The notes below the pieces were generated by a model that was not told the origin of the DNA, did not search any database, and saw only the letters and a program-made list of their open reading frames with translations. Both the position numbers and the translations under genes were made by a program. 33,182 nt of DNA, from assembly GCA_043819555.1 (NCBI GenBank), contig JBDREQ010000071.1:1-33182 (forward strand). The letters run 5' to 3'. How positions within the stretch are numbered: the stretch's first letter is position 1; the number at the start of each line of letters is the position of its first letter. This document shows, piece by piece, positions 3 through 33,182 of this stretch. This DNA is from Candidatus Zixiibacteriota bacterium. Its GTDB lineage: Bacteria > Zixibacteria > MSB-5A5 > GN15 > JAAZOE01.

Positions 3-254
3 CCTAATCCGTTCAATCCGGATACGCGAATCGAATATGCCCTACATAAGCCGTGTCACGTCAACATCAAGATTTACAATATCCTGGGACAAACAGTAAA
101 GATTCTCATAGATGAATACCAACAAGCAGGGGAAAAATCAATCATCTGGGATGGCACAAATTCTAAAGGCCACAATGTCGCCACTGGTGTCTATTTATAT
201 CGCCTTGAAGCCGGGGATTTCGTTAGATCGAAGAAGATGTTGCTGTTGAAATAG
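3..254 (+). CDS. 3' end of a secreted protein with FlgD-Ig/T9SS type A-like C-terminal sorting domain (5'-partial)
   Basis: Not in the ORF track. Frame from base 3 reads PNPFNPDTRIEYALHKPCHVNIKIYNILGQTVKIL...WDGTNSKGHNVATGVYLYRLEAGDFVRSKKMLLLK*, the typical PNPFN...IYNILGQ.V..L...WDG...GVYLYRL...KKMLLLK pattern. Confidence 0.9.
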   Translation, partial: PNPFNPDTRIEYALHKPCHVNIKIYNILGQTVKILIDEYQQAGEKSIIWDGTNSKGHNVATGVYLYRLEAGDFVRSKKMLLLK

Positions 255-3297: not shown

Positions 3298-4108
3298 AAC
3301 TATACCTTCAATCCTAAAATGTCTAATACCGCCAAACCGGCATTAATTTTTTATTGAGAAAGGCCTGACATCCGAAATTCATTTATATTAGACCGACATC
3401 GGCAGAAATTGTTGCAGCAATGTAAAAATCGTTTGATTGATTTTCCTGGTGGCTCCAACAACGCCATAAATTGGGCTAACAGTGTAAAATTATATGCGTA
3501 TAAAATATGGATATTGAACAGTTGTTTACTGCCTGCCTCCGCCGCCCAGTGCCTTTCATACTGATCCGTTATGCGGCGTATTAAGATTAAAAGCCGGGTT
3601 TTAATGCCTGAAAACAAAGGAAATGATGATACTGATTAATCATCTTCATATAGACGGAAAAGGATGAGTGATTCCAGTGTTCAATTCAAAGAAGAATCGG
3701 GCCGTTCATAACGTTGTCTACTTTTCACAAGATGAAGGCTGACGAATTCTATTTGGCATTTCTAAATTGAATTCGCTGCATTTTTAATGTTTGGAATGCG
3801 GTAAAGACTGAAGCAATTAGATTGGCGCTCAGTGCAGAAAGTTAAATAAATTATCAGTGTTAAAGTTTATTGTTTTTTGTTGACACTCTTACACTTAATT
3901 GCCAATTTTCTGATTGGGTAGATGTATGAAAAAAAGACATGGAAGGTCCTCTATCATGGATGAGAATTACATAATGTTTTTTATAAGCAAATATTGCCAA
4001 AAAACGCAAAGGATTGAAGGGAGGGATGTATCGAAAAATTAATGTTAAAGAACTTTCTTGGCAAAGTACTCATAATCTATACCAATGACAAAGGAGGAGT
4101 TTAAAAGC

Positions 4109-7100
4109 ATGAAGCCAAAAGTTTTTATCGTAGTGTGTTTTGTAGCATGCTTAATGGCGGCTCCGATTTGGGCGGGTGTCACCGGTGCCATAACCGGCAC
4201 AGTTGTTGACTCCCAAACCAAAGAGCCGTTGCCAGGTGTTTCGGTAAGTATTGCCGGAACGACCATGGGGGCAAAATCCGATTTGGAAGGGCGTTTCATT
4301 GTTTTGAATGTCCCCGTCGGATCATACACACTTGTATTTAGTTCCGTTGGATATTCCCGAGTGGAAGTTTCCGACGTAAGAGTTTCGGCCGACTTGGCGA
4401 CTTTCCAGAATCGGGAGATGAACCAGGAAACTGCGGAAACCGGACGAGTGATTACCGTTACCGCGGAACGTCCTATGGTTATCAAGGACAGAACAACAAC
4501 GGTTAGTATCGTTGGCCGGGAAGAACTGCTTGCCATGCCGACCCGCGGATTTGATCAAATAGTCGGTCTGCAAAACAGTGTCGTCCGGATGAATTCAAAC
4601 GTTGATACACGCCAAAGAGGTGCTCGAGAGGCGTCATCGGGAACAGCTCCGGAGATAAACCTCCGCGGTGGCCGCCGCTCTGAAGTTGCTTATTATGTTG
4701 ATGGCTTTTCGCAGCAGGATCCGTTATCGGGTATCTCAACCGCGAATATCAATAATAATGCGATTAAGGAGGTTTCGGTAACTTCCGGCGCCTTTTCAGC
4801 CGAGTATGGCCATGTTGCTTCAGGTATCGTTAACGTCACCACAAATTCAGGTACCGAAGAATATCACGGAACTATCGAATTGGTCAGTGATAATATTGCT
4901 ACCCCATTCGGTTACGACAGCTATGACCAAAACTGGTATTCCGGAGATATTGGCGGTCCGATACCGGGATTAGAAAGAGCTTATTTCTTCTTTTCCGGCG
5001 AACGCCGCTTTTTACGCGATCGCGCCCCATCTATAAATACGGGGACGATATTTGAAGAATTCGGGCTTAGTAAATTGTATAATGAGCCGCAAAGGTTGCC
5101 CAGTAATTATCTTAGTGGTTGGTCCTACCAAGGTAAAATCGACATTGATGTAACTTCTAACCTAAAACTGACCTTAAATGGAAACGGCTCGATTGACAAA
5201 TGGCAAGAATATCGCCACAACTATAACAATCCCGATTTTCCGCAGCAGGTTCGGCATTCACCTCAATACGATGATCGGAACCAGGGATTAAATGCGAAAA
5301 TAACGCATACACTGAGTCCGCAGACGTTTTATAATCTGAGTGCATCATACTTCCGTACTGAACGGTATCGGATGGATGGCATTTTGTTTGATGATTATGC
5401 CGGCTATTTTCAAACCATTGATATATCGTTGTTAGACCACCTGGGCGATACTACGGTGACTTTTTCCGACTTGGAAATACCACATCCGGAATGGGATTTT
5501 TATAATCTTTTCCGTGAACCGGATTCCATCTATTACAGCGATTTGGTTAATTTTGATGGCGATACATTGTACCAGATCGATGATTCTCTGGATGCATTAA
5601 TAGGCGTGGTTGAAGGCCGATGGTTTAATCACCTGAAAAGAAAAGCCACTTATTGGCAGGCCAAAGGTGATATTACTCACCAGGCAGGATCATACCATAC
5701 CTTGAAATTTGGATTTGATTTCCAACGTCATACGCTGCGTTATTTTGAGAATTTAAACGCGAATCAAAGCCAGGATACGGCCGACGTCGAATCCCGGTTA
5801 AATCGTTACGGCTATGACATTAATGGTGTCGAGACGGATGCTGAAGACTTTAAGAACAGTACCAAGAATCCTATTAATATCGGCATCTATTTGCAGGATC
5901 GTTTTGATTGGCGGGGTTTTATTGTAAACGCCGGCGTCAGGTTTGACTATTTTGATTATAAAGCCTTACGCATTAAGGAAGTGACATCTCCATTCGATTA
6001 TACCGGTGGAACCGACCAGGAACTTGATCGGGAAGATCTTGAGAATTCTGAAAAGTTCACTCGAGTTTCTCCTCGACTTGGTATTTCATTTCCGGTCTCG
6101 GATAAAACTCAACTCTATATGAACTATGGCCAATTCTACCAGCGTCCCGATCTTTTAAGACTGTACCTTAGTTATGATTTTCTTGAATCGCGCATCGTCA
6201 GGGCTGGATCATTTTATCCTTTCCCAAGTCCGAATTTGAAGCCTGAAAAAACAATTGCTTATGAGTTTGGATTGACGAATCAACTGAGTGACAACGTCGT
6301 GTTCTCAGTCGCCGGCTATTATAAAGATGTTTCCGATTTGACGCAGGTATTCAAACAAAGTCCGGCCATACCCAGGTCTTACGATTTTTATGGTAACACC
6401 GACTATGGAACGATTAAGGGGTTTGATTTCGCATTGATGATGAGACGGACACAGAATATTAGCCTTAATTTGAAATATACTCTCAGTTATGCCACGGGCA
6501 CCGGTTCATTCGCAAACTCCACGAGCAATATTGCTTGGAAAAAAGACAAAGACTCATTCCCCAAGATGACTGCGCCTCTTGATTATGATCAAAGACACAG
6601 CATCATCGGAATCTTTGATTATCGTAATTCCAAGGGTGAAGGTCCTAAGTTGGGCGATACATACATCCTCGAAAACTTCGGAGTCAATGCAATAATCCAG
6701 GCTGCCAGTGGAACACCATATACGCCAATGGAAGTTTATGATCCGGTGACGAGCATCTCTGTTGATCAAAATCCAACAGGTTCGGCCAATTCGGCTAACC
6801 TTCCCTGGACCTATGTGATCGATATGAAAGCCGAGAAATCATTTATTTTTGGCGAATATCGTTTGGTGCCGTTTATCTGGGTAAAGAACCTTCTGAACAC
6901 TGAAAATATAACTAATATTTACGAAGGTACCGGCGAAGCAAACGTTACGGGATATCTGGAATCACCTGAAGGCATGGGGAAAGCCAGCAATGAAACCGTA
7001 ATTGATGAGGATACCGGCTTGACCCGAGGTGAGCAATATGCCCATCGGCATAATTTATTGCAAAATAATCCGAAAAACTATTCCAACCCTCGGATGATTA

Positions 7101-7126
7101 TGGTTGGATTGAGGATGTCATTCTAA
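4109..7126 (+). CDS. TonB-dependent receptor with N-terminal carboxypeptidase-regulatory-like domain
   Basis: ATG at 4109 after AGGAGG; signal peptide; GAITGTVVDSQTKEPLPGVSV; plug motifs RGGR.SEVAYYVDG and GAFSAEYGHVASGIVNVTT; PNLKPEKT; C-terminal PRMIMVGLRMSF ending in Phe. Confidence 0.93.
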   Translation: MKPKVFIVVCFVACLMAAPIWAGVTGAITGTVVDSQTKEPLPGVSVSIAGTTMGAKSDLEGRFIVLNVPVGSYTLVFSSVGYSRVEVSDVRVSADLATFQNREMNQETAETGRVITVTAERPMVIKDRTTTVSIVGREELLAMPTRGFDQIVGLQNSVVRMNSNVDTRQRGAREASSGTAPEINLRGGRRSEVAYYVDGFSQQDPLSGISTANINNNAIKEVSVTSGAFSAEYGHVASGIVNVTTNSGTEEYHGTIELVSDNIATPFGYDSYDQNWYSGDIGGPIPGLERAYFFFSGERRFLRDRAPSINTGTIFEEFGLSKLYNEPQRLPSNYLSGWSYQGKIDIDVTSNLKLTLNGNGSIDKWQEYRHNYNNPDFPQQVRHSPQYDDRNQGLNAKITHTLSPQTFYNLSASYFRTERYRMDGILFDDYAGYFQTIDISLLDHLGDTTVTFSDLEIPHPEWDFYNLFREPDSIYYSDLVNFDGDTLYQIDDSLDALIGVVEGRWFNHLKRKATYWQAKGDITHQAGSYHTLKFGFDFQRHTLRYFENLNANQSQDTADVESRLNRYGYDINGVETDAEDFKNSTKNPINIGIYLQDRFDWRGFIVNAGVRFDYFDYKALRIKEVTSPFDYTGGTDQELDREDLENSEKFTRVSPRLGISFPVSDKTQLYMNYGQFYQRPDLLRLYLSYDFLESRIVRAGSFYPFPSPNLKPEKTIAYEFGLTNQLSDNVVFSVAGYYKDVSDLTQVFKQSPAIPRSYDFYGNTDYGTIKGFDFALMMRRTQNISLNLKYTLSYATGTGSFANSTSNIAWKKDKDSFPKMTAPLDYDQRHSIIGIFDYRNSKGEGPKLGDTYILENFGVNAIIQAASGTPYTPMEVYDPVTSISVDQNPTGSANSANLPWTYVIDMKAEKSFIFGEYRLVPFIWVKNLLNTENITNIYEGTGEANVTGYLESPEGMGKASNETVIDEDTGLTRGEQYAHRHNLLQNNPKNYSNPRMIMVGLRMSF

Positions 7127-7145
7127 GAAAGATGAGGACACTACA

Positions 7146-10100
7146 ATGAAAATAAGATTTTTCATATGCTTTCTGCTGGTATTTCTTTTTGCTGTCCCGT
7201 TACAGGCGGCTCCTCCAAAAGGATATATCGGCGATAAAGCGCTCATTGTTGATAATACTACCTGGATCGACGCCAATCGAATACTAATGTTTGTTACCAA
7301 TCAATGTAACTTTGGGCGTGATTTAGGTGGTTATTTCGGCTATGACTACGGAACTTTTTATCCGTATATAGGCGATCCTGATTTAATCAGCGACGGCGTC
7401 GCTCAGGCGGTTGCGTCGCCATATTATGCTGGGGGTCTCTGGGTCGCTGGATTAGTTAACGGAGTGGTTCATGCCGCGGTATCGGAGTATTCGAGTGAAT
7501 ATGTCCCGGGACCGATGGCAGACAACACCTTTTCTAAGGACAAATCCTATTATCGGGTATTTAAGATATATCGAGATTCTATGGCTACCAATCCAAACGA
7601 GGATTATCTTGATTATGTTGAGTATGCCATTCCCGATGGCGCCCCTTATCAAAAGGATAGTCTGGGTGATCCGGTTCTTGACGGTGATGGCAATTATATC
7701 CCCGAATTGTTTGGTGACCAGATGTGCTGGTCAATTTGCAATGATGCCGACCCGGCGCAACACTCAGGTATCCAGGGCGGTGAGACCGAACCACTCGGTA
7801 TTCAAGTAAAACAGACGATTTTTGCATTTACTCGAGAAGGAACTTTAGGAGATATGGTTTTCCTGCGCCTTCGAATCTATAATAAAGGCGTAAATACAAT
7901 TAATAACTGCTATTTCTCGATTTGGTCCGATCCTGATATTGGCGGTTCAGCAGACGATTTGGTCGGGTGTGATACGCTCCTGGGCCTGGGATATTGTTAC
8001 CAGAGTCCCGGCGAAGCAGATTCCCGGTACGATGGATCATCAGCCCCCTGGCCGCCTGTAGTCGGAATTGACTTTTTCCAGGGTCCATTCCGGGCGGCAA
8101 CGGCCGAAGATATTGCTAACGCGGATCCCGCTGATACTACCGACGATGGTGAATTGATTCTGGGCAGAATGTGGGGGAAAACATATTCCGACTCCGTAAA
8201 TATCGGAATGGTATCATTCAATAAGTATATTAACGGCACCGACCCGGATAACGTTACCGAAACTTACCGTTATATGCGGGGCTTGAATAAAGATGGCACG
8301 CCTTATGTTTATAATGGGGGTACATTGCTCTACCAGGTATCGGGTGATCCGGTAAATGATCCTCAGGGCTTGGTTTCAGATGTGGATAACGCTTCGGCCG
8401 ACAGGCGCATGATGCAAACAACCGGTCCGGTTACATTTGTGCCGGGCGACTCAACCGAAATTTTGGCCGCTATGATTTTTGCCCGAGGCTCAGAGGATGT
8501 GAAACAGGCGATTACATTAGTTAAGGACCTTGATGCCTTTGCCCAGCAGCTATATGATGACGGGTTTAATCCTCCGCGTCCTCCAACGCCGCCAAATATC
8601 GATGTTCGTGTTCTTAAAGACCGTATTACACTGCTTTGGGATGATACATCACAGGTCAATCCTGGTGACTTTGAGTTTGAAGGTTATTCAGTATGGCAAA
8701 CTGCGGATCCCTCTTCCGGGAACTGGAAACTGTTGAAAACATGGGATATTATAAATGACCGCAATGTTGCACTTGTAGATTCCGTGCCCAATACGATTTT
8801 GAATGCTATTTTGCCGGTTATCAAGAGGCAAATTTCAAATAGCGGTTTGAATTATAGCTATACCACGAATATTAACCAGATTACCGGAGAAGCTATTCAC
8901 GCCCTTACTGAATATTATTTCCGGGTTACGGCTTTCTCATTTGCTTATGAATATGAGCGAGCTGGTGAGATAATTGTGGTTAACAATGGTGACCGGTTCC
9001 TGGAAAGTCAAACCTTTGTGAGTGTAATACCACAAGCAATTCCAACTGGAACACATATTACATATGACGCTAAGGATACGCTTATTGTCGAGCATACTGC
9101 CGGTATTTCAATGGGATCTGTTTCGGTAGAAGTTGTCGATCCCCTGGCGCTCACCGGGCATACCTACCAGGTCCTATTCAAGGATACGATAATGGAGGTC
9201 AATGGCATTCCTGCCACGACCGTATGGCATCTTTACGATGTCACCGCCGATACTTTCCTCCTGGAAAATCAGGTAAACCAGGGCCTTGCCGAAGATGAAT
9301 TCTGGGTAGTTGATGGAATTAAGGTAATGGTCAATGGCCCGCCCGTTGAAATTACTAACTTCCAAATGGTTGCTAATGGCGCTGGGGTGATTGATCCACC
9401 GGAAGCGGCAGCTGCCGACTTTGGTGGTTTTCCAACAGGTGTGGATGCCGATGGAGTTCCATTACGTCCTGGTGATGGCCAGCAGGTTGGCGAAGGTCAT
9501 TGGTTCTTCCATACCGCTGATAACGGCGGAACAAGTGGCGGCGGGACGCGAGGCAGTTTCGATGCCTTTATGTCTCGTGCAACGCGCGATGGAGGTAACC
9601 TGGCTTACATTGGCTTTACCGATTATGAAATGCGTTTTACCGGTGATAATGGCACTCCCGGTGTGGGGGGCTCATACGCCATTGAAGCCTTCAATGATGA
9701 TAACGTATTCTGGGTGCCTTTTGAATTATGGCGTACCGGAATCGGAACTCCGGATGATCCCAGCGATGATGTCAGGCTGATTCCGCTTATCATCGATGAT
9801 GCCAATGTCGATTATTCGGGAGATGACATTTATGCCCTTGAAAGCTGGGGAGCAGACGGTACCACCTGTAGCGGAGATTGTGAACATTCGGTGTCAGGCG
9901 GCAATGATGATCCGTTCACCGACTGGGTTTATTGGTATACGCCTGCTGACATGAGTCCTGGGGAAGCCGGTTATATGGCTCATGAAACTCTATTGCTGGA
10001 CGCTGATCCAGGCAATGATTATGATGTTGTAATGGATGAAGTTTTTGCTCGGACAGTTCTGGTTAACTGGAACGGTGGAGAAGAACCGCCCTTTAACCAG

Positions 10101-10532
10101 GATGTTCCTGAGCAGGGTTCTGTTATACGCATTGTAACTTCGAAAGGTCACAGCCCCAGTGATATCTGGGAGTTTTCAACTGAGGCTCCAACTTTAACTT
10201 CGACAGAAGGTGATCTTGATGAGATTACGCCCGTTCCAAATCCGTTTTATCTCTTTGGCGGTTATGATCCATCGCCGGGCAGTAAGCGGATTGCGTTCCA
10301 TAATCTGCCTGATGTCTGCACGATTAAGATTTTCAATCTTGCGGGCGATTTGGTAAGAACGCTTGATAAGGAAGCGGACGGTACCAACTATACTTATTGG
10401 AATTTGCTTACGGATAATAGGCTACCGATTGCCTCCGGCATTTATATTTATGTTGTGGAAGCCAAAGAATTTGGTACTAAGATCGGTAAGATGGCTGTCT
10501 TTGTTGAAGCAGAAGTACTAACTATATATTAA
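7146..10532 (+). CDS. Large acidic secreted/surface protein with FN3-like segment and T9SS/FlgD-like C-terminal domain
   Basis: Signal peptide; PPRPPTPP linker then ITLLWDD...DFEFEGYSVW...EYYFRVTAF (FN3-like); C-terminus VPNPF...FHNLPDVCTIKIFNLAGDLVRTL...WNLLTDNRLPIASGIYIYVV...GKMAVF. Confidence 0.82.
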   Translation: MKIRFFICFLLVFLFAVPLQAAPPKGYIGDKALIVDNTTWIDANRILMFVTNQCNFGRDLGGYFGYDYGTFYPYIGDPDLISDGVAQAVASPYYAGGLWVAGLVNGVVHAAVSEYSSEYVPGPMADNTFSKDKSYYRVFKIYRDSMATNPNEDYLDYVEYAIPDGAPYQKDSLGDPVLDGDGNYIPELFGDQMCWSICNDADPAQHSGIQGGETEPLGIQVKQTIFAFTREGTLGDMVFLRLRIYNKGVNTINNCYFSIWSDPDIGGSADDLVGCDTLLGLGYCYQSPGEADSRYDGSSAPWPPVVGIDFFQGPFRAATAEDIANADPADTTDDGELILGRMWGKTYSDSVNIGMVSFNKYINGTDPDNVTETYRYMRGLNKDGTPYVYNGGTLLYQVSGDPVNDPQGLVSDVDNASADRRMMQTTGPVTFVPGDSTEILAAMIFARGSEDVKQAITLVKDLDAFAQQLYDDGFNPPRPPTPPNIDVRVLKDRITLLWDDTSQVNPGDFEFEGYSVWQTADPSSGNWKLLKTWDIINDRNVALVDSVPNTILNAILPVIKRQISNSGLNYSYTTNINQITGEAIHALTEYYFRVTAFSFAYEYERAGEIIVVNNGDRFLESQTFVSVIPQAIPTGTHITYDAKDTLIVEHTAGISMGSVSVEVVDPLALTGHTYQVLFKDTIMEVNGIPATTVWHLYDVTADTFLLENQVNQGLAEDEFWVVDGIKVMVNGPPVEITNFQMVANGAGVIDPPEAAAADFGGFPTGVDADGVPLRPGDGQQVGEGHWFFHTADNGGTSGGGTRGSFDAFMSRATRDGGNLAYIGFTDYEMRFTGDNGTPGVGGSYAIEAFNDDNVFWVPFELWRTGIGTPDDPSDDVRLIPLIIDDANVDYSGDDIYALESWGADGTTCSGDCEHSVSGGNDDPFTDWVYWYTPADMSPGEAGYMAHETLLLDADPGNDYDVVMDEVFARTVLVNWNGGEEPPFNQDVPEQGSVIRIVTSKGHSPSDIWEFSTEAPTLTSTEGDLDEITPVPNPFYLFGGYDPSPGSKRIAFHNLPDVCTIKIFNLAGDLVRTLDKEADGTNYTYWNLLTDNRLPIASGIYIYVVEAKEFGTKIGKMAVFVEAEVLTIY

Positions 10533-10550
10533 ACAAGGAGATTGTAGCAA

Positions 10551-11537
10551 ATGAAATATAAACTGTTCATATTAACCATGGTTCTCCTTGTTGTGAGCCT
10601 TAACCTGGCTTACGCGGGGAACAACCTGCGTTTAGGTACTGCAGGCGCTCAGGAGTTGCGGATTCCCGTCGGCTCTCGCGGAGTGGCCATGGGAGGAGCG
10701 GTGATTGCTGATGCGCGCGGGGTTGAGTCGGTCTTCTGGAATCCAGCCGGACTGGCGAATACTCCGGGGACGCAAGTGATGTTTATGCATCACCCCTATA
10801 TCGCGGATATTAATGTCAATTTCGTGGGTGTGGCAACCCGCATTGAAGATTTTGGCACAATCGCGGCGGCGGCAAAAATCGTATCAATAGGAGATATAAA
10901 GGAAACGACCGAAGATGCTCCATTCGGAACCGGTCGATTCTTCTCTCCTTCGCTATCGGTAATGTCGTTGTCATATTCTCGTTTATTGACCGGTCAGGTG
11001 GCTTTTGGCGCCAATGCTTTGTTCATCAGCGAGAAAATTGCCGATATGTCTGCCAGCGGCATGGCCTTTGATATTGGTATTATGTTTGATCCCAATTGGA
11101 ATGGCTTGACGATGGGCATGGTCATCAAGAACTATGGTCCGCAAATGAGCTTCTCGGGACATAAAATCAATATTGGCGATCGCCCCGGAGAGCCGACCAG
11201 CTCTAAGTTCGAACTTCCCAGTACGGTGGATTTTGGAATGTCATTAAAAGTGCTGGAGCAGGATCGAAATATAGCCAAACTAAACGGTAATTTCCGTTCA
11301 AATAACTTTGGCAATGATCAATTTCTTGGAGGCGCTGAATATGTCTTTGATGAGAAATATTCTCTGCGCGCCGGATATAGCTATTCCGATCAGGCCGATT
11401 ATTTATTTGGTTTCTCGGCCGGTGGGGGACTAACGTTCGATTTGGGCGAAACGGCTATGAGCTTTGAATTTGCTTGGGCTGAGACTGGTGATATTTTTGA
11501 TGCCAATCAATATTTCACTTTCACGCTCCAATTCTAA
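10551..11537 (+). CDS. PorV/PorQ-family outer-membrane beta-barrel (FadL-like)
   Basis: GAQELRIPVGSRGVAMGGA...SVFWNPAGLA signature; amphipathic beta strands; terminal Phe; RBS AGGAG. Confidence 0.88.
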   Translation: MKYKLFILTMVLLVVSLNLAYAGNNLRLGTAGAQELRIPVGSRGVAMGGAVIADARGVESVFWNPAGLANTPGTQVMFMHHPYIADINVNFVGVATRIEDFGTIAAAAKIVSIGDIKETTEDAPFGTGRFFSPSLSVMSLSYSRLLTGQVAFGANALFISEKIADMSASGMAFDIGIMFDPNWNGLTMGMVIKNYGPQMSFSGHKINIGDRPGEPTSSKFELPSTVDFGMSLKVLEQDRNIAKLNGNFRSNNFGNDQFLGGAEYVFDEKYSLRAGYSYSDQADYLFGFSAGGGLTFDLGETAMSFEFAWAETGDIFDANQYFTFTLQF

Positions 11538-11557
11538 ACGATTTAGGATTTGAATTG

Positions 11558-11590
11558 AAGCCGGGTATCATAACGATATCCGGCTTTTTT
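11558..11590 (+). terminator. Intrinsic terminator of the receptor/cargo/PorV operon
   Basis: AAGCCGGGTATC-ataac-GATATCCGGCTTTTTT. Confidence 0.85.
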
Positions 11591-13209: not shown

Positions 13210-14409
13210 CTAATCTTCCAGGTATCCGTAACCAATCAACTCATAGGTCACTTTTGTCATCGGTCCGAGATTATACTCACGGACTGTCCGTGACATGACG
13301 CCGATATTGGGAACCAGTAAACTTTCCACGCCACGATAATAATTAAATCCCTGATGCGAATAGTAATGTTTAAACGCCGTGAATTCGCCACCGTGGCGGT
13401 AAGTCACGGGGACTTTTTCAAATACATCCGGAATCGGAACAAAAAACATAATTCCCCAATAACGCCCCACCGTCAGGGGGAATTCATAATAGTAATCGCG
13501 AATGGGATTGTATTCTCCAATAATTGTTCGGGGGAGAGGATAAACTTCAATGCGATTATTAACAATGGCAACATATTCGGTGTCTTGATGGTTGCCGTAG
13601 TCATACACCCAAACCTTGCCGATTACATCACCGATAACAGTCGGAACCGTGACTGTGTCAGTTACCATAACAAGCAATGTGTCATAGGTATTGTTGATAC
13701 TGTCATGCGATTCATATTTCCAGAAAAAGGCGATATCATTGGGAAACTGCTCGATATAAAAAGTCGTCAAATCAAAATTCAATAACTCCCAGGTTTCATT
13801 GACCGATGTATAAAGCTGTGCGCCGTCGGAATATTGAGAAAGCTGATGACGGCTGACCATTCCGACGCTATCAGCGATCCAGGTTGTACTGTAATTGCCG
13901 CCTCCCTCAAAATCATGTAGCCAAACCCTTTCAACTTTGGCAGCTGAGACAAACATTCCGGCAGAAACGGAAATGGTTCCACGCTCGGTCACACGACTTG
14001 TATCATCATGTACATTAGGCCCGGTCCACATTTTGTTCAGGTCAAGGGGAAACACAAACCATTCGCCGCCCCCCATCATCAGGCTATCATTGGAGATCAT
14101 TAACGTATCACCTTTAAGAGTATAATAGCGGCTGATGACGTTATTGATATAATTGACATTCCATTTCATGGTCAAGAGGGGGTCGCCAATCGTCAAAGTA
14201 TCAACTATCGATACTTCGACGGTATCGGTTTCACCGGTCAGGCTATCATAAACGGCATACTCCCAGTACATTCCAACCTGTTTGGGGAAATTATTCTGGG
14301 ATGTCACTATAATCCCAGTTTTCCTGCTTGAGACAAGATCATCATCGCACCCGGATATTAAGAACGCGGCCAAGGCGGTAAAGATTGAATTCCAAAGTAA
14401 TAATTTCAC
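13210..14409 (-). CDS. Lipoprotein with two tandem homologous beta-rich domains, function unknown
   Basis: GTG at 14409 after AGAGGAG; lipobox LISG-C; internal duplication (FP...W.Y..xDS..., FPL....W, GM/VxSR). Confidence 0.8.
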   Translation of the reverse strand: MKLLLWNSIFTALAAFLISGCDDDLVSSRKTGIIVTSQNNFPKQVGMYWEYAVYDSLTGETDTVEVSIVDTLTIGDPLLTMKWNVNYINNVISRYYTLKGDTLMISNDSLMMGGGEWFVFPLDLNKMWTGPNVHDDTSRVTERGTISVSAGMFVSAAKVERVWLHDFEGGGNYSTTWIADSVGMVSRHQLSQYSDGAQLYTSVNETWELLNFDLTTFYIEQFPNDIAFFWKYESHDSINNTYDTLLVMVTDTVTVPTVIGDVIGKVWVYDYGNHQDTEYVAIVNNRIEVYPLPRTIIGEYNPIRDYYYEFPLTVGRYWGIMFFVPIPDVFEKVPVTYRHGGEFTAFKHYYSHQGFNYYRGVESLLVPNIGVMSRTVREYNLGPMTKVTYELIGYGYLED

Positions 14410-14535
14410 AGCATCTCCTCTTCGAACATATCTCCCATAAAATATTAAGCAAGAATTATGCCTTAAACTAACCAATTAATAACGTCAAACCGGACAGTGA
14501 ATTATGAAATTACTGACTGGCTATTGCACTATCAT

Positions 14536-21734: not shown

Positions 21735-22547
21735 TTACTTCGATTTCATCTTCTGAGCCAGCTCCCAGAGATTGACGTATGATGAATCAATGGTGAAGAT
21801 TTCATGAATCATTGAACCGTCGCCGTTAAATTCTCCGGTTGCCCCATAATTGAATTTCTGGACAAACACGAGGTAATCGTTAACAATCGGTGTCTGCAAT
21901 TGACAAAGCCCCTCGACAAATGTCTCTTTGGCGGGATAACGAGCCGATTCAAAATCATAAATTGTTTCCCATTGGCAATCGCCCTTATCCAGGATATACA
22001 TGTAACGGCGCCAGACTTTTTCCATATCGCCGCCGCCGGAACGGGCCATGATAAACCGGGATGAATCGGGGAAAAGGTAACTGCCATCGAGATTGACCGC
22101 GGCGTCGAGATTCGGGAAATTCTCTCCAACGCACATAAGGCGAATGTTCTCTCCTTCAACTTTCCATTTGGTCATAATAGCGCTGACTTTTTGCCTGCTT
22201 TTGACATCGACCAATGATGCATAAATGATTCCTTCGTCGGAAATCTCCAGTGTTGCCTGGGCCATATAGGTGTACCATGGAGGTAAGCCGAAAAATTTCC
22301 CCTGCTCATCCGGAAACTCGCCGATTTTATTGATATACTCCATCGGTTCGAGTTCGTTCCAGCCGGAGATATCGAACGCGGTGAATGATCCTGATACTTC
22401 ATCAAACGTGCCAATGAAATATTTGAGGCTCTCTTTGGCGATGACAATTTCGGCACCAGCTGTGGTACCCGAATCGGTTTTCTGATCCGATCCGCAGGCA
22501 GCTAAAAGAAGGATAGCCGCCAACCCTGCAAAAATAATTTTTCTCAT
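21735..22547 (-). CDS. Hypothetical lipoprotein
   Basis: MRK + hydrophobic stretch + LAA-C lipobox; TTTACA-N17-TATATT-N6-ATG upstream. Confidence 0.82.
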   Translation of the reverse strand: MRKIIFAGLAAILLLAACGSDQKTDSGTTAGAEIVIAKESLKYFIGTFDEVSGSFTAFDISGWNELEPMEYINKIGEFPDEQGKFFGLPPWYTYMAQATLEISDEGIIYASLVDVKSRQKVSAIMTKWKVEGENIRLMCVGENFPNLDAAVNLDGSYLFPDSSRFIMARSGGGDMEKVWRRYMYILDKGDCQWETIYDFESARYPAKETFVEGLCQLQTPIVNDYLVFVQKFNYGATGEFNGDGSMIHEIFTIDSSYVNLWELAQKMKSK

Positions 22548-26768: not shown

Positions 26769-27806
26769 CTAATTAGGGGGATTTTGATTTATTTTCTTGG
26801 TGACGCCTGCATCATCGTTAAACACATTTAATGCGGGAGGAGCCGAACAAACGCCGGAATTACATAAATATCCCGGAGGACATTGATAACCACACATCCC
26901 ACAGTTATTTTCATCAGAATTTGTATTGACACATTGCCCGGCACAATTGGTCAATCCTGTTTGGCAATTCAAAACACAATTACCATTTTGGCATATATAC
27001 CCCGGAGGACATGAGTTACCGCAATTACCGCAGTTATCTTCATCATCCACAAGATCCACGCACTGGCCGCCGCAATTAACCATACCAGTAGGGCAATTCA
27101 ATTCACAGTTACCACTGACGCAGATATAGCCCGGAGGACATGAGCTGCCGCAAGAGCCACAGTTATCCTCATCGTTAAGAATATCAACGCATTGACCGCC
27201 GCAATTAACCATACCAGTAGAGCAATTCAAAACGCATGCTCCGTTTTGACAAATATATCCCGGAGGACATTGTTGGCCGCACAAACCGCAATTATTTTCA
27301 TCAGATGCCAGATCCACGCACTGGCCGCCGCAATTAACCATACCAGTAGGGCAATTCAATTCACAGTTACCACTGACGCAGATATAGCCCGGAGGACATG
27401 GGCTGCCGCAAGAGCCACAGTTGTCCTCATCGTTAAGAATATCCACGCATTGGCCGCCGCAATTAACCATTCCCGCGGGGCAATTCAAAACGCATTGGCC
27501 GTTACTGCAAATCTGTCCCGGAGGGCATTGGTGACCGCAGGAACCGCAGTTGTAAATATCGTTTGCCAGATTGACACAGATTCCCGCACAATCAATGTAT
27601 CCCATAGGGCAGGCGTTACAGTTTGGGCTGGGGTCGGGACCGCCCTTAAATACAAGGTTGATTAGATATACGGCATCACCGATATTGGTGTCGCCGTCGC
27701 CGTTGGCGTCACCGCAAGTGGTATCGCCAAGCACGCAGACCGGAACACACAAAACCCAAAATACGATTAATAGAAAATAATTTCTTGGATGTAAATACTT
27801 AGTCAT
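26769..27806 (-). CDS. Secreted protein: dockerin-like motif plus six 43-aa Cys-rich (Stig1/myxobacterial-type) repeats
   Basis: ATG 27806 after GGAGG; signal peptide; CGDANGDGDTNIGDAVYLINLVFKGGP; six units of C..G...C.G.CV....D..NCG.CG..CPPG..C..G.C. Confidence 0.88.
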   Translation of the reverse strand: MTKYLHPRNYFLLIVFWVLCVPVCVLGDTTCGDANGDGDTNIGDAVYLINLVFKGGPDPSPNCNACPMGYIDCAGICVNLANDIYNCGSCGHQCPPGQICSNGQCVLNCPAGMVNCGGQCVDILNDEDNCGSCGSPCPPGYICVSGNCELNCPTGMVNCGGQCVDLASDENNCGLCGQQCPPGYICQNGACVLNCSTGMVNCGGQCVDILNDEDNCGSCGSSCPPGYICVSGNCELNCPTGMVNCGGQCVDLVDDEDNCGNCGNSCPPGYICQNGNCVLNCQTGLTNCAGQCVNTNSDENNCGMCGYQCPPGYLCNSGVCSAPPALNVFNDDAGVTKKINQNPPN

Positions 27807-28036
27807 GGCTTCCTCCAAAGTATGATTAGCATTTTTAGCCCCGCAATGAAAAAGTAATAAACAGGTGTATGAGGACAAGATAAGTCTTTATTACAATACG
27901 TCAAGGATTAATTATTGAGCGAAGACAAGAAACAACGTCACCATCAAATACATCAATTTATTTCTTTGATAATCCGGCAACATCATATATAATATTTCAT
28001 GTAAATATATGGGGGCGCAAATTTGGGGAGGATGCT

Positions 28037-29212
28037 TTGAGATATTTCTTTATTGTTTTCATATCATTTTTTATTTTGGCAGGATTCGGCCAAAATAAAA
28101 AAATTGCAAACATCAAAGAACAACCGGCGGGAAATAAACAAGAAAAAGCTGGGGAGACTCCATCTGCGGAATCGGAGGCAATCCCTGATTCGGCAGATTT
28201 TATCAATGTCGGAAAATACCCGGAACAAATTTATGAAGAGGTTCCTGAATTTCCAGAGAGAGGATTAAATGCTAACATAAATGCCAAAATTATTATTGAG
28301 GCATATATTGATGAAACTGGAAAGGTGTTGAAAGCCCACGCACTCAAATGCACATCACCGGGTTATGGATTTGAGGAAGCTTCTACGACGGCCGCATACA
28401 AATGTACATACAAACCTGCTCGGAAAAACGGCAAACCAATAGGTTGCTGGATCAGTTATGTTGTTCATTTTATTGGAGATCCCAATAAGCCGTCGGCAAC
28501 ATTGAATTTTGAGCATCTATCCAATATGCCTACTCATCAAAACGTGGTTCCTTCAACAAACTGGCCGCCTCCGCCGGATTCTATTCCAGTCGATGAGCTT
28601 CCACAACCATTCCAACTTGTTAAACCGGAATACCCACAATCGGCATCCCCGGATAAACCAGATGCCACGGTTACTCTGGCGGTATATATAAGTTCATTGG
28701 GACATGTAAAAAAAATCGAAATAATCACGTCCGATAATCCTTCTAATAGTTTTAGTGACAATGCATCGGAAGCTGCCAAGAAAACTCAATTTTCTCCAGC
28801 CAAAAGAAATGGAATAAAAATAGGCACTTGGGTGTATTATGATGTGATCTTCAATAAACTATCGGGAGTGAGTGTGGGGGAAATCAAGCAATTATTCTCC
28901 AATACAAAAGAGGAATTGACTGCCTCTAAAGATGGTATTATTTCTCCGGATGAATTTGTTGCAGTTGATGTAGTGCCCGAACAGATTTATGAGGAAATTC
29001 CCGAGTATCCATCAAAAGCATTGGAAAAGAAAATTACAGGATTTGTTATTGTTGAAGTTTTTGTAGACGAGAATGGAAACGTTAAAAAAGGACAGGTTAA
29101 ATCTTGTCAGCCTAAGAATTGGGGTTTTGAACAAGCAGCGACAAATTCGGCTTATAAATGCAAATATAAACCGGCGTTGCGCGATGGGAAACCGGTTGGC
29201 GTTTGGATTTAA
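28037..29212 (+). CDS. TonB-family protein with three TonB C-terminal domains (third cut short by TAA)
   Basis: Three units of P.[FY]P..[AG]......V....I/VD..G.V........F...A..AA....[YF].PA...G..[IV]G.W; N-terminal hydrophobic segment; TTG start after GGAGG. Confidence 0.85.
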   Translation: MRYFFIVFISFFILAGFGQNKKIANIKEQPAGNKQEKAGETPSAESEAIPDSADFINVGKYPEQIYEEVPEFPERGLNANINAKIIIEAYIDETGKVLKAHALKCTSPGYGFEEASTTAAYKCTYKPARKNGKPIGCWISYVVHFIGDPNKPSATLNFEHLSNMPTHQNVVPSTNWPPPPDSIPVDELPQPFQLVKPEYPQSASPDKPDATVTLAVYISSLGHVKKIEIITSDNPSNSFSDNASEAAKKTQFSPAKRNGIKIGTWVYYDVIFNKLSGVSVGEIKQLFSNTKEELTASKDGIISPDEFVAVDVVPEQIYEEIPEYPSKALEKKITGFVIVEVFVDENGNVKKGQVKSCQPKNWGFEQAATNSAYKCKYKPALRDGKPVGVWI

Positions 29213-32022: not shown

Positions 32023-32625
32023 ATGAAAATGGAAATTAGAAAAAAGATCATCCAGATTGTTAAGCAGCTTGGTATCGTTCGGCCAAGAGATATGGATGAA
32101 TATGGCATACATCGTAAGTATATCCATATGCTATATAATCAGGGTGTACTAAATCGAATTGGACGAAGCCTCTATACCCTTTCTGAGACAGAGCCGTCTG
32201 AAAATAGAAGTATCGCCGAAGCCTGTAAACGGATGCCATCAGGAGTAGTCTGCCTGCTCTCGGCTCTCAGGTTTCATGATCTGACAACTCAATCGCCTTA
32301 TGAGATCTGGATGGCTATTGACAATAAGGCTCGAAGCCCTAAAGAACTTGGTATTCCTATACGGATTGCGAGATTTTCCGGTAAAGTACTTACGTCCGGA
32401 ATCGAACAACATAATATTGAAGGCGTTACCATCCGCGTTTATAATCCGGCGAAAACAGTTGCCGATTGTTTTAAATTCAGAAACAAGATTGGACTAGATG
32501 TTGCTCTCGAAGCTCTACGCGACTGTCACCAGTCTCGAAAATGTACGATGGATGATCTTTGGAAATATGCTAAAATCTGCAGGGTTGCCAATATCATAAA
32601 ACCGTATCTCGAGTCACTGGTATGA
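32023..32625 (+). CDS. abiEi: Type IV TA antitoxin / transcriptional regulator, AbiEi family
   Basis: N-terminal wHTH (RIGRSLY); GVVCLLSALRFHDLT; YNPAKTVADCFKFRNKIGLDVALEAL. Confidence 0.9.
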   Translation: MKMEIRKKIIQIVKQLGIVRPRDMDEYGIHRKYIHMLYNQGVLNRIGRSLYTLSETEPSENRSIAEACKRMPSGVVCLLSALRFHDLTTQSPYEIWMAIDNKARSPKELGIPIRIARFSGKVLTSGIEQHNIEGVTIRVYNPAKTVADCFKFRNKIGLDVALEALRDCHQSRKCTMDDLWKYAKICRVANIIKPYLESLV

Positions 32626-33182
32626 GTAAAAAGAATTCTCATAATCTCGAGGTTTCGGTTCGTCAGCGCCTGCTAAATCTCAGCCGAGAACGTAATGAAG
32701 ATTTTAATCTAATTCTGACACGTTATGCGGTGGAAAGATTCCTATATCGGCTATCAAAATCTAAACATGTAGACAGATTTATTCTTAAAGGTGCGATGCT
32801 AACCACCATTTGGATAGGCGAAGTGCATCGTCCAACTCGTGATCTGGATTTGCTCGGTTTTGGCGATCCGGAAGCAGAAGTTCTCAAAACAATTATGGCA
32901 GAAATATGTCTGGGAGATGTCGAAAGAGATGGACTTGAATACGAAGCTGACAGTGTTGAGATAGGGGAGATTCGTGAAAATCAGGCATACCCCGGACAGC
33001 GAGTGAAGATAAAGGCGAAACTCGGTAATGCCAGGATAAGAATCCAAATTGATGTCGGTTTTGGTGATGCAGTAACACCAAAGGCAAAAATCATTACTTA
33101 TCCGGTATTGCTTGATTATCCGGCTCCGCGAATCCGAGCTTATCCCAAAGAGACCCAGATTGCGGAGAAATTACAATCAATG
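32622..33182 (+). CDS. abiEii: AbiEii/AbiGii nucleotidyltransferase toxin (3'-partial)
   Basis: Not in the ORF track. ATGA overlap with abiEi; reads SVRQRLLN...YAVERFLYRLS...FILKGAML...RPTRDLDLL...IDVGFGD...IAEKLQSM and runs off the window. Confidence 0.92.
   Translation, partial: MSKKNSHNLEVSVRQRLLNLSRERNEDFNLILTRYAVERFLYRLSKSKHVDRFILKGAMLTTIWIGEVHRPTRDLDLLGFGDPEAEVLKTIMAEICLGDVERDGLEYEADSVEIGEIRENQAYPGQRVKIKAKLGNARIRIQIDVGFGDAVTPKAKIITYPVLLDYPAPRIRAYPKETQIAEKLQSM

Follow-up and report, generated by a model that had tools for sequence, protein, structure and literature searches.

A conserved operon of Zixibacteria and related phyla joins a TonB-dependent receptor, a surface protein with a T9SS-type C-terminal domain and a PorV/PorQ-family barrel: a candidate SusD-free import unit

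In the SusC/SusD (RagA/RagB) systems a TonB-dependent importer is co-encoded with a surface partner. The PorQ-PorZ pair belongs to the attachment complex of Porphyromonas gingivalis's type IX secretion system (T9SS; PMC10947112), T9SS cargos whose C-terminal domain (CTD) is of type B stay anchored on a barrel of the PorP/SprF type (PMC12618676, PMC9143113), and in BamG-BamH-BamA of the Bacteroidota beta-barrel assembly machinery (BAM) a 14-stranded FadL-family barrel packs on a larger barrel and holds in place an extracellular partner above it (PMC12611786). Here we describe a three-gene operon (the triad) on the forward strand of a 33,182-nucleotide stretch of DNA from a Candidatus Zixiibacteriota bacterium (assembly GCA_043819555.1, contig JBDREQ010000071.1, positions 1 to 33,182), which was analysed over its whole length and is referred to as the window. 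The triad, composed of genes for a receptor, a secreted surface protein (the cargo) and a small barrel, is real, widely conserved and apparently undescribed in the literature searched; its parts are known ones, as is the principle of anchoring on which it relies. We assign a probability of roughly 0.55 to the reading that it is a SusD-free outer-membrane capture and import unit, whose cargo would be anchored as PorZ is on PorQ and would expose a variable tip.

The receptor gene (4109..7126, 1005 aa; open reading frame 4085/4109-7126) is followed after 19 bp by the cargo gene (7146..10532, 1128 aa), and this after 18 bp by the barrel gene (10551..11537, 328 aa). The start at 4109 is favoured for the receptor because a Shine-Dalgarno-like AGGAGG is located at 4092..4097. 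A hairpin of 13 pairs with a T run (11557..11587), resembling an intrinsic terminator, is the longest forward-strand hairpin of the region; terminator-like sites in total are at chance level (12, against 9.3 +/- 3.3 in shuffled sequence), as is the promoter scan (27 matches, against 21.8 +/- 4.8). The original prediction of three co-oriented genes with 19- and 18-bp gaps and one shared hairpin is thus borne out at 4109-11587, and so is its statement that the window encodes neither a SusD-like lipoprotein nor a T9SS core gene: none was found when its 21 ORFs were scanned with Pfam.

The gene order was scrutinized in other genomes. Cargo loci were fetched from the 30 of 40 relatives that had an orthologue among the matches listed; the barrel gene lies downstream in 30/30, and the receptor gene upstream in all 27 loci not cut by a contig end. 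A wider collection scan, overlapping these relatives in part, gave at least 545 relatives of 600 stretches, with record titles naming Zixibacteria, Eisenbacteria, Latescibacterota and others. Among its best 79 loci, 59 encode a cargo with the C-terminal tail described below, and here the barrel is directly downstream in 59/59 and the receptor present in 57/57 assessable cases; seven complete homologues without the tail have neither barrel nor receptor, one locus lacks the barrel and is cut upstream, and 12 are cut. In other genomes, 69 distinct complete triads were found. The syntenic conservation on which the prediction depended is confirmed in both sets.

The host genome, i.e. the assembly that contains the window (97% complete), carries a second triad on contig C20 and, on contig C24, a cassette composed of a receptor with a large acidic insertion, a PorV-family barrel and a lipoprotein (L140:1102-7703; C24:17102-23706). 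The C20 type is present in 40/40 relatives (38 complete, two cut), and a high-scoring match to the C24 receptor exists in 40/40; in seven C24-type loci that were fetched the barrel is next to the receptor in 7/7 and the lipoprotein follows in six, one being cut by the fetched region. No mixture of the two paralogous triad types was found, in line with cognate sorting. Free relatives of the cargo and receptor-less pairs also occur: six stand-alone proteins of 835-865 aa that have a related N-domain and whose CTD ends in K[LI]VIMK (L142; host contigs C3:3512, C31:16247 and C25:74192), stand-alone N-domain homologues directly followed by a PorV-family gene of their own (L097, L116), a tandem of three N-domain genes that have dockerin-like ends and run on the opposite strand immediately behind a triad (L063:11237-17098), a CTD protein of 1447 aa paired with a 606-aa barrel fusion (L147), and an 841-aa protein with two barrels behind it (L148).

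Based on Pfam, the receptor (4109..7126) is composed of a signal peptide, a CarboxypepD_reg-like domain, a plug (PF07715, 36.4, cut-off 23.9), a TonB-dependent beta-barrel (PF00593, 91.3, cut-off 27) and a C-terminal Phe; a further stretch, spotted by eye against the consensus, resembles a TonB box. It remains far under the SusC/RagA subfamily model (TIGR04056, 86.3, cut-off 368.25). SusD (PF07980) was detected neither in the host genome (0/1) nor in 101 genomes of the phylum (0/101), with Bacteroides thetaiotaomicron detected as positive control. The host genome has three MotA_ExbB matches and TonB_C proteins on contig C5 and in the window, where the protein encoded at 28037-29212 carries three TonB_C domains.

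The barrel (10551..11537) passes the PorV family model (NF033709, 168.9, cut-off 90) and matches the solved PorV structure 6h3i_F (E 1.7e-6), and the FadL fold inferred for it from this similarity supports, at the level of the family, the PorV/FadL type foreseen for the third gene. Calling it a paralog of PorV is correct only in so far as it belongs to the PorV/PorQ family: it scores below the equivalog models of both PorV (NF033710, 59.2, cut-off 250) and PorQ (NF033711, 99.8, cut-off 220), and a better PorV candidate (NF033710 score 170.8) adjoins porU. This downstream neighbour of porU (L143:4771-7458; host C25:7771-10461) is a PorV-type barrel of 896 aa with several hundred residues inserted after the N-terminal tail. 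Residues E35, P39, K109, K193, N251 and D256 of the triad barrel are specific to the type whose cargo bears the tail.

The cargo has a signal peptide without a lipoprotein Cys, no match in Pfam or to any other family, and named homologues that are mostly from Zixibacteria. Its AF2 model (pLDDT 87.8, pTM 0.78) begins with an N-domain (aa 36-475, 7251..8570), a predicted beta-supersandwich which in structure comparison resembles the N-terminal domains of GH15, GH65 and GH94 enzymes and galactose mutarotase, with glucodextranase 1ulv_A aligning over 237 residues (VIA-align Z 19.2, rmsd 3.0); W260, D262, D264, D271, Y361, N363 and D419 form invariant columns. In GH15, GH65 and GH94 glycosidases and phosphorylases a helical catalytic barrel comes after the supersandwich. 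The cargo model, in which the structure matches span residues 28-526, is nearly all beta beyond aa 475 and has no such barrel, which makes an enzymatic role the weaker option. A predicted FN3-like linker domain follows (aa 476-632, 8571..9041), based on its strand pattern and FN3-rich Foldseek rows; titin was the sole match of the cargo profile in a PDB sequence search, and a weak one (E 0.55). The next domain, D3 (aa 633-735, 9042..9350, completed by aa ~991-1012), resembles the beta domain of FlgK/FlgL (4ut1_A, Z 9.2, rmsd 2.5, 86 residues aligned) and is the host domain of a nested insert.

At its C-terminus the cargo carries a T9SS-type CTD (10203..10499). Type A CTDs form an Ig-like sandwich of seven strands, the last of which carries a Lys (PMC11285876); the type A assignment of the original prediction holds for the fold, with seven predicted strands in aa 1028-1118 and an invariant K1115 in the last, but the score stays under the cut-off of the type A model (TIGR04183, 15.6, cut-off 23) and the protein continues into an extra conserved tail. 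This tail, F-x-E-x-E-x-[LI]-x-x-[YF] (10500..10529), was defined by alignment and is placed with low confidence in the monomer model. The motif ExEx[LI]xx[YF] was found only in triad cargos, and one of the 5954 ORFs of the host genome carries it. Other CTD proteins of this genome end with the last strand, give or take a few residues, while the cargo runs on for about nine. In 61 triad cargos (the frameshifted locus L127 was dropped) Glu -8 and Glu -6 are each conserved in 60/61, Leu/Ile -4 in 61/61 and Tyr/Phe -1 in 59/61, and this conservation suggests a binding partner. Because P. gingivalis tolerates tags appended to the CTD (PMC11285876), the tail need not block export. Models of the type B CTD (TIGR04131) and of PorP/SprF gave no match for the cargo or the barrel at E <= 0.1; in the same search over the host genome no positive control responded.

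Embedded in D3 is an insert of about 255 aa (aa ~736-990, 9351..10115, model pLDDT 93) that is exchanged between triads. Foldseek gave no match for it at E <= 0.001, a result that does not make its fold a new one; VIA-align rows with Z >= 5 cover no more than 85-92 residues, which corresponds to the host domain in size, and structure atlas searches returned no usable match. Co-phylogeny of the three genes, which the original prediction had called for, was found except for this segment. Among 70 triads (L127 dropped), none of the 48 supported receptor splits conflicts with the barrel tree, and 21/48 conflict with the cargo tree. When the cargo was divided, in the 62 triads of the window's type, the N-domain (rho 0.71, 2/27 splits in conflict) and the CTD (rho 0.76, 2/12) followed the receptor, and the insert was discordant with it (rho 0.016, 16/21 supported splits in conflict).

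Close pairs display the replacement directly. Between loci L027 and L041 the receptors are 98% identical, barrel and N-domain 97%, the CTDs 95% and the inserts 23%, with a DNA identity of 85-96% over most of the operon and of 33-39% across the insert; between L094 and L125 the values are 94% (receptor), 95% (barrel), 83% (N-domain), 80% (CTD) and 24% (insert). Among 63 pairs with receptors at least 65% identical, which are not independent of each other, 29 have inserts below 35% identity and none an N-domain or CTD below 50%. The swaps preserve the reading frame, have both of their ends inside the same host domain and are seen again in independent pairs. In 37 triads of the C20 type, examined as a control, the insert tracks the receptor (rho 0.68) and 0/16 close pairs are swapped. 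The inserts of the window's type fall into about ten classes of distant homologues within one family (BLAST clusters, with the singleton L089 placed by hand), and distributing ten classes over the receptor tree takes 28 changes or more, where nine is the minimum.

The insert family is also found in ordinary type A cargos of other phyla. Among 120 matches, the nearest to the window's insert is a free paralogue of the same genome that ends in a dockerin (78% identity in protein, 73.5% in DNA over 778 bp), and genome G024 has a triad insert that matches a free paralogue of G039 at 69% identity but the triad insert of G039 itself at 24%. Judged by these identities, there is a pool of putative donors, which does not imply a direction of transfer. 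A free paralogue of the host genome (L144:526-3153; host contig C63:14523-17153) has the host-plus-insert module in an N-domain loop and a Dockerin_1 domain in place of the CTD. The receptor barely alters where the insert has been exchanged, and for this reason the insert is unlikely to determine which substrate is imported.

Outside the window, the T9SS machinery that the original prediction proposed to look for was found in part. SprA (601.6, cut-off 200) and PorU (622.6, cut-off 420) are present in the host genome, and SprA is above cut-off in 101/101 genomes of the phylum; SprA outside Bacteroidota is already known, having been reported across phyla of the FCB group (PMC12611786). The host genome further has 45 type A CTD matches, eight ORF-level matches to the PorV family above cut-off besides partial ones, and a PorZ-like gene (127, cut-off 260) separate from the cargo. 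The contig itself starts with the C-terminal part of an ordinary type A CTD protein (window 3-254, truncated). Of the motor components, GldL, GldM and GldN were not found in the host genome and GldK gave a match below cut-off only, using Bacteroidota models for which no positive control passed; GldM was likewise found in 0/101 phylum genomes, and in 0/16 triad-bearing genomes included as control. Divergent motors may have been missed for this reason, and the T9SS of host and phylum is motorless in appearance.

In the model that we favour, the cargo would cross the outer membrane via SprA and be collected by its own PorV/PorQ-family barrel rather than by the general PorV, which would keep it with an uncleaved CTD; the tail would serve as the address, by analogy with PorZ, which is held on PorQ, and with the type B cargos of SprF/PorP. 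The small barrel would sit beside the receptor, where the conserved N-domain may bind a polymer or oligomer (a glycan or glycopeptide is the likeliest) and hand it to the TonB-gated pore for import, the cargo acting as a lid or binding protein for the receptor. The nested insert would form an exposed tip, not tied to receptor specificity and replaced by recombination with other copies, free paralogues included, under a diversifying pressure that might come from an attachment target or from recognition by phages or predators. All protein contacts in this model are inferred from gene order, co-inheritance and analogy, and the substrate is inferred too. A search for fusions among proteins of 1975-5000 aa gave two matches in 5829 candidates, both multi-domain and without a TonB barrel, which says little either way.

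The neighbouring genes were surveyed for clues to the substrate. Murein-peptide recycling genes (NlpC/P60-SH3, S66 LD-carboxypeptidase, enolase-superfamily epimerase-like and Amidase_3) adjoin the triad in 19/62 loci, in both Zixibacteria and Eisenbacteria. In eight of them (L021, L030, L031, L032, L047, L094, L100 and L125) an NlpC/P60-SH3 gene lies 55-116 bp after the barrel gene and is followed by epimerase-like, LD-carboxypeptidase or amidase genes. This linkage of genes is a possible lead only. A constant neighbouring substrate gene was considered and rejected, the best neighbour family occurring in 14/62 loci.

Several observations weigh against an import unit of this kind. The triad has no constant substrate gene beside it, no neighbour family exceeding 14/62 loci, and within the window it is surrounded by a MacAB-type efflux operon and a methyltransferase. 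The supersandwich fold is also found in proteins that do not act on glycans, e.g. the periplasmic domain of YidC. Free proteins with dockerin-like or ordinary CTD ends carry the N-domain and the insert without a receptor, so the N-domain does not need one. Any set of linked genes would be expected to give congruent trees, as receptor and barrel do, and two paralogous receptor-barrel units, found in all 40 relatives, look more like housekeeping than substrate-specific uptake. Finally, as no motor genes were found, the exit of the cargo from SprA is unexplained.

The most credible of the alternatives, if an unlikely one, is that cargo and barrel are an anchored adhesin or surface-display pair, similar to SprB-SprF, whose variable tip is the business end, with the receptor being merely co-regulated and making no contact. 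A hypervariable insert, nested in a FlgK/FlgL-like domain and found in many ordinary T9SS cargos, would suit such a role, as would the further cargo-plus-barrel pairs without a receptor in the host genome; against a bystander receptor speak its presence upstream in every assessable tail-bearing locus of several phyla, a receptor tree more congruent with that of the barrel than with that of the cargo, and the third cassette, which links the receptor directly to the barrel and lacks a CTD cargo between the two. Somewhat less credible is a cargo that is a surface enzyme, its supersandwich being catalytic as in mutarotases and some lyases, and a receptor that imports the products, for instance in the salvage of muropeptides. 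The N-domain's invariant Asp, Asn, Trp and Tyr residues, its structural matches to mutarotases and lyases at Z 12-14 and the recycling genes adjoining 19/62 triads point in this direction, but the cargo matches no family and its model has no helical catalytic barrel, the linkage of transketolase/aminotransferase genes to the triad in 12/62 loci implies that old gene order alone can explain the recycling genes, and in the host genome the latter are on another contig than the triad.

More doubtful still is a receptor that would be a part of the secretion system, comparable to PorF, giving by TonB/ExbBD pulling an energy or handling step to a T9SS that lacks the PorKLMN motor. This would agree with SprA in 101/101 and GldM in 0/101 phylum genomes, with GldK, GldL and GldN not found in the host genome, with two receptor-barrel units in 40/40 relatives, and with PorF of P. 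gingivalis, a protein of predicted TonB-receptor type without which T9SS output is not normal (PMC12704123). The motor searches had no positive control and may overlook divergent motors, however; among the matches listed the window's triad type was not seen in 10/40 relatives; each receptor has one dedicated cargo although the genome has 45 type A CTD matches; and the authors of the PorF study themselves propose glycan import (PMC12704123). Equally doubtful is its extended version, in which the receptor-barrel units couple a T9SS deprived of the PorKLMN motor to TonB/ExbBD, and the receptor has two tasks, to energise or complete the handling of cargo and to hold a surface protein whose tip domain is swapped in cassette fashion; if true, this would be a second way of powering a T9SS together with a new system of antigenic or target variation. 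That the triad is a chance neighbourhood or an assembly artefact is hardly credible: all genomes are metagenome assemblies, but the synteny counts, with 69 distinct complete triads elsewhere, refute it, and swaps that are in frame, within the same host domain and in independent pairs speak against it.

The remainder of the window contains a 369-aa protein with six stretches that match the plant-type Stig1 family (26769-27878, reverse strand), two ORFs of 421 and 270 aa without Pfam match (13210-14475 and 21735-22547, reverse strand), and an AbiEi-type antitoxin gene that overlaps a downstream ORF running off the window end (32023-33182), probably forming a toxin-antitoxin pair.

The capture and import unit proposed here suggests how FCB-related phyla without SusD, by record title Zixibacteria, Eisenbacteria, Latescibacterota and others, could give TonB importers a surface partner by borrowing T9SS anchoring. 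The triad would define an address code open to test, i.e. a cargo tail with its cognate barrel, and its exchangeable domain is a natural experiment that separates scaffold from specificity, while SprA throughout the phylum without a detectable motor turns the energy source of these T9SSs into a concrete question. The statement that no experimental description of the module was known is consistent with the mostly open-access literature searched: no published description of the triad was found in it (supplements and most subscription papers excluded), and the available part of PMC11969387 has nothing on such a module.

Similar to SusC/SusD (RagA/RagB), the triad co-encodes a TonB-dependent importer with a surface partner, and its receptor carries a CarboxypepD_reg-like domain at the N-terminus; unlike there, the receptor lies far beneath the cut-off for SusC, the partner is secreted, all-beta and not lipid-anchored, and SusD was found in none of the 101 genomes of the phylum. 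Compared with PorQ-PorZ, the triad barrel scores 99.8 where PorQ requires 220, the cargo is not PorZ, for which a separate PorZ-like gene exists, and the PorQ-PorZ pair, as far as the source describes it, has no TonB receptor (PMC10947112). With PorF (PG0534) of P. gingivalis the triad shares a predicted TonB-receptor-type protein tied to T9SS function, but a dedicated cargo-barrel operon is not described for PorF in the available text (PMC12704123). Closer in principle are the type B cargos and their PorP/SprF shuttles, with the shuttle gene directly downstream, cognate pairing and a cargo that stays anchored on the barrel (PMC12618676, PMC9143113), as proposed for the triad cargo; the differences are a barrel of the PorV/PorQ family, a seven-strand, type-A-like CTD with a tail, and a TonB receptor heading the operon. 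The BAM complex differs in having a lipoprotein as partner, BamA as the large barrel and protein insertion as its task (PMC12611786); by analogy, BamG-BamH-BamA offers a structural precedent for the layout proposed for the triad.

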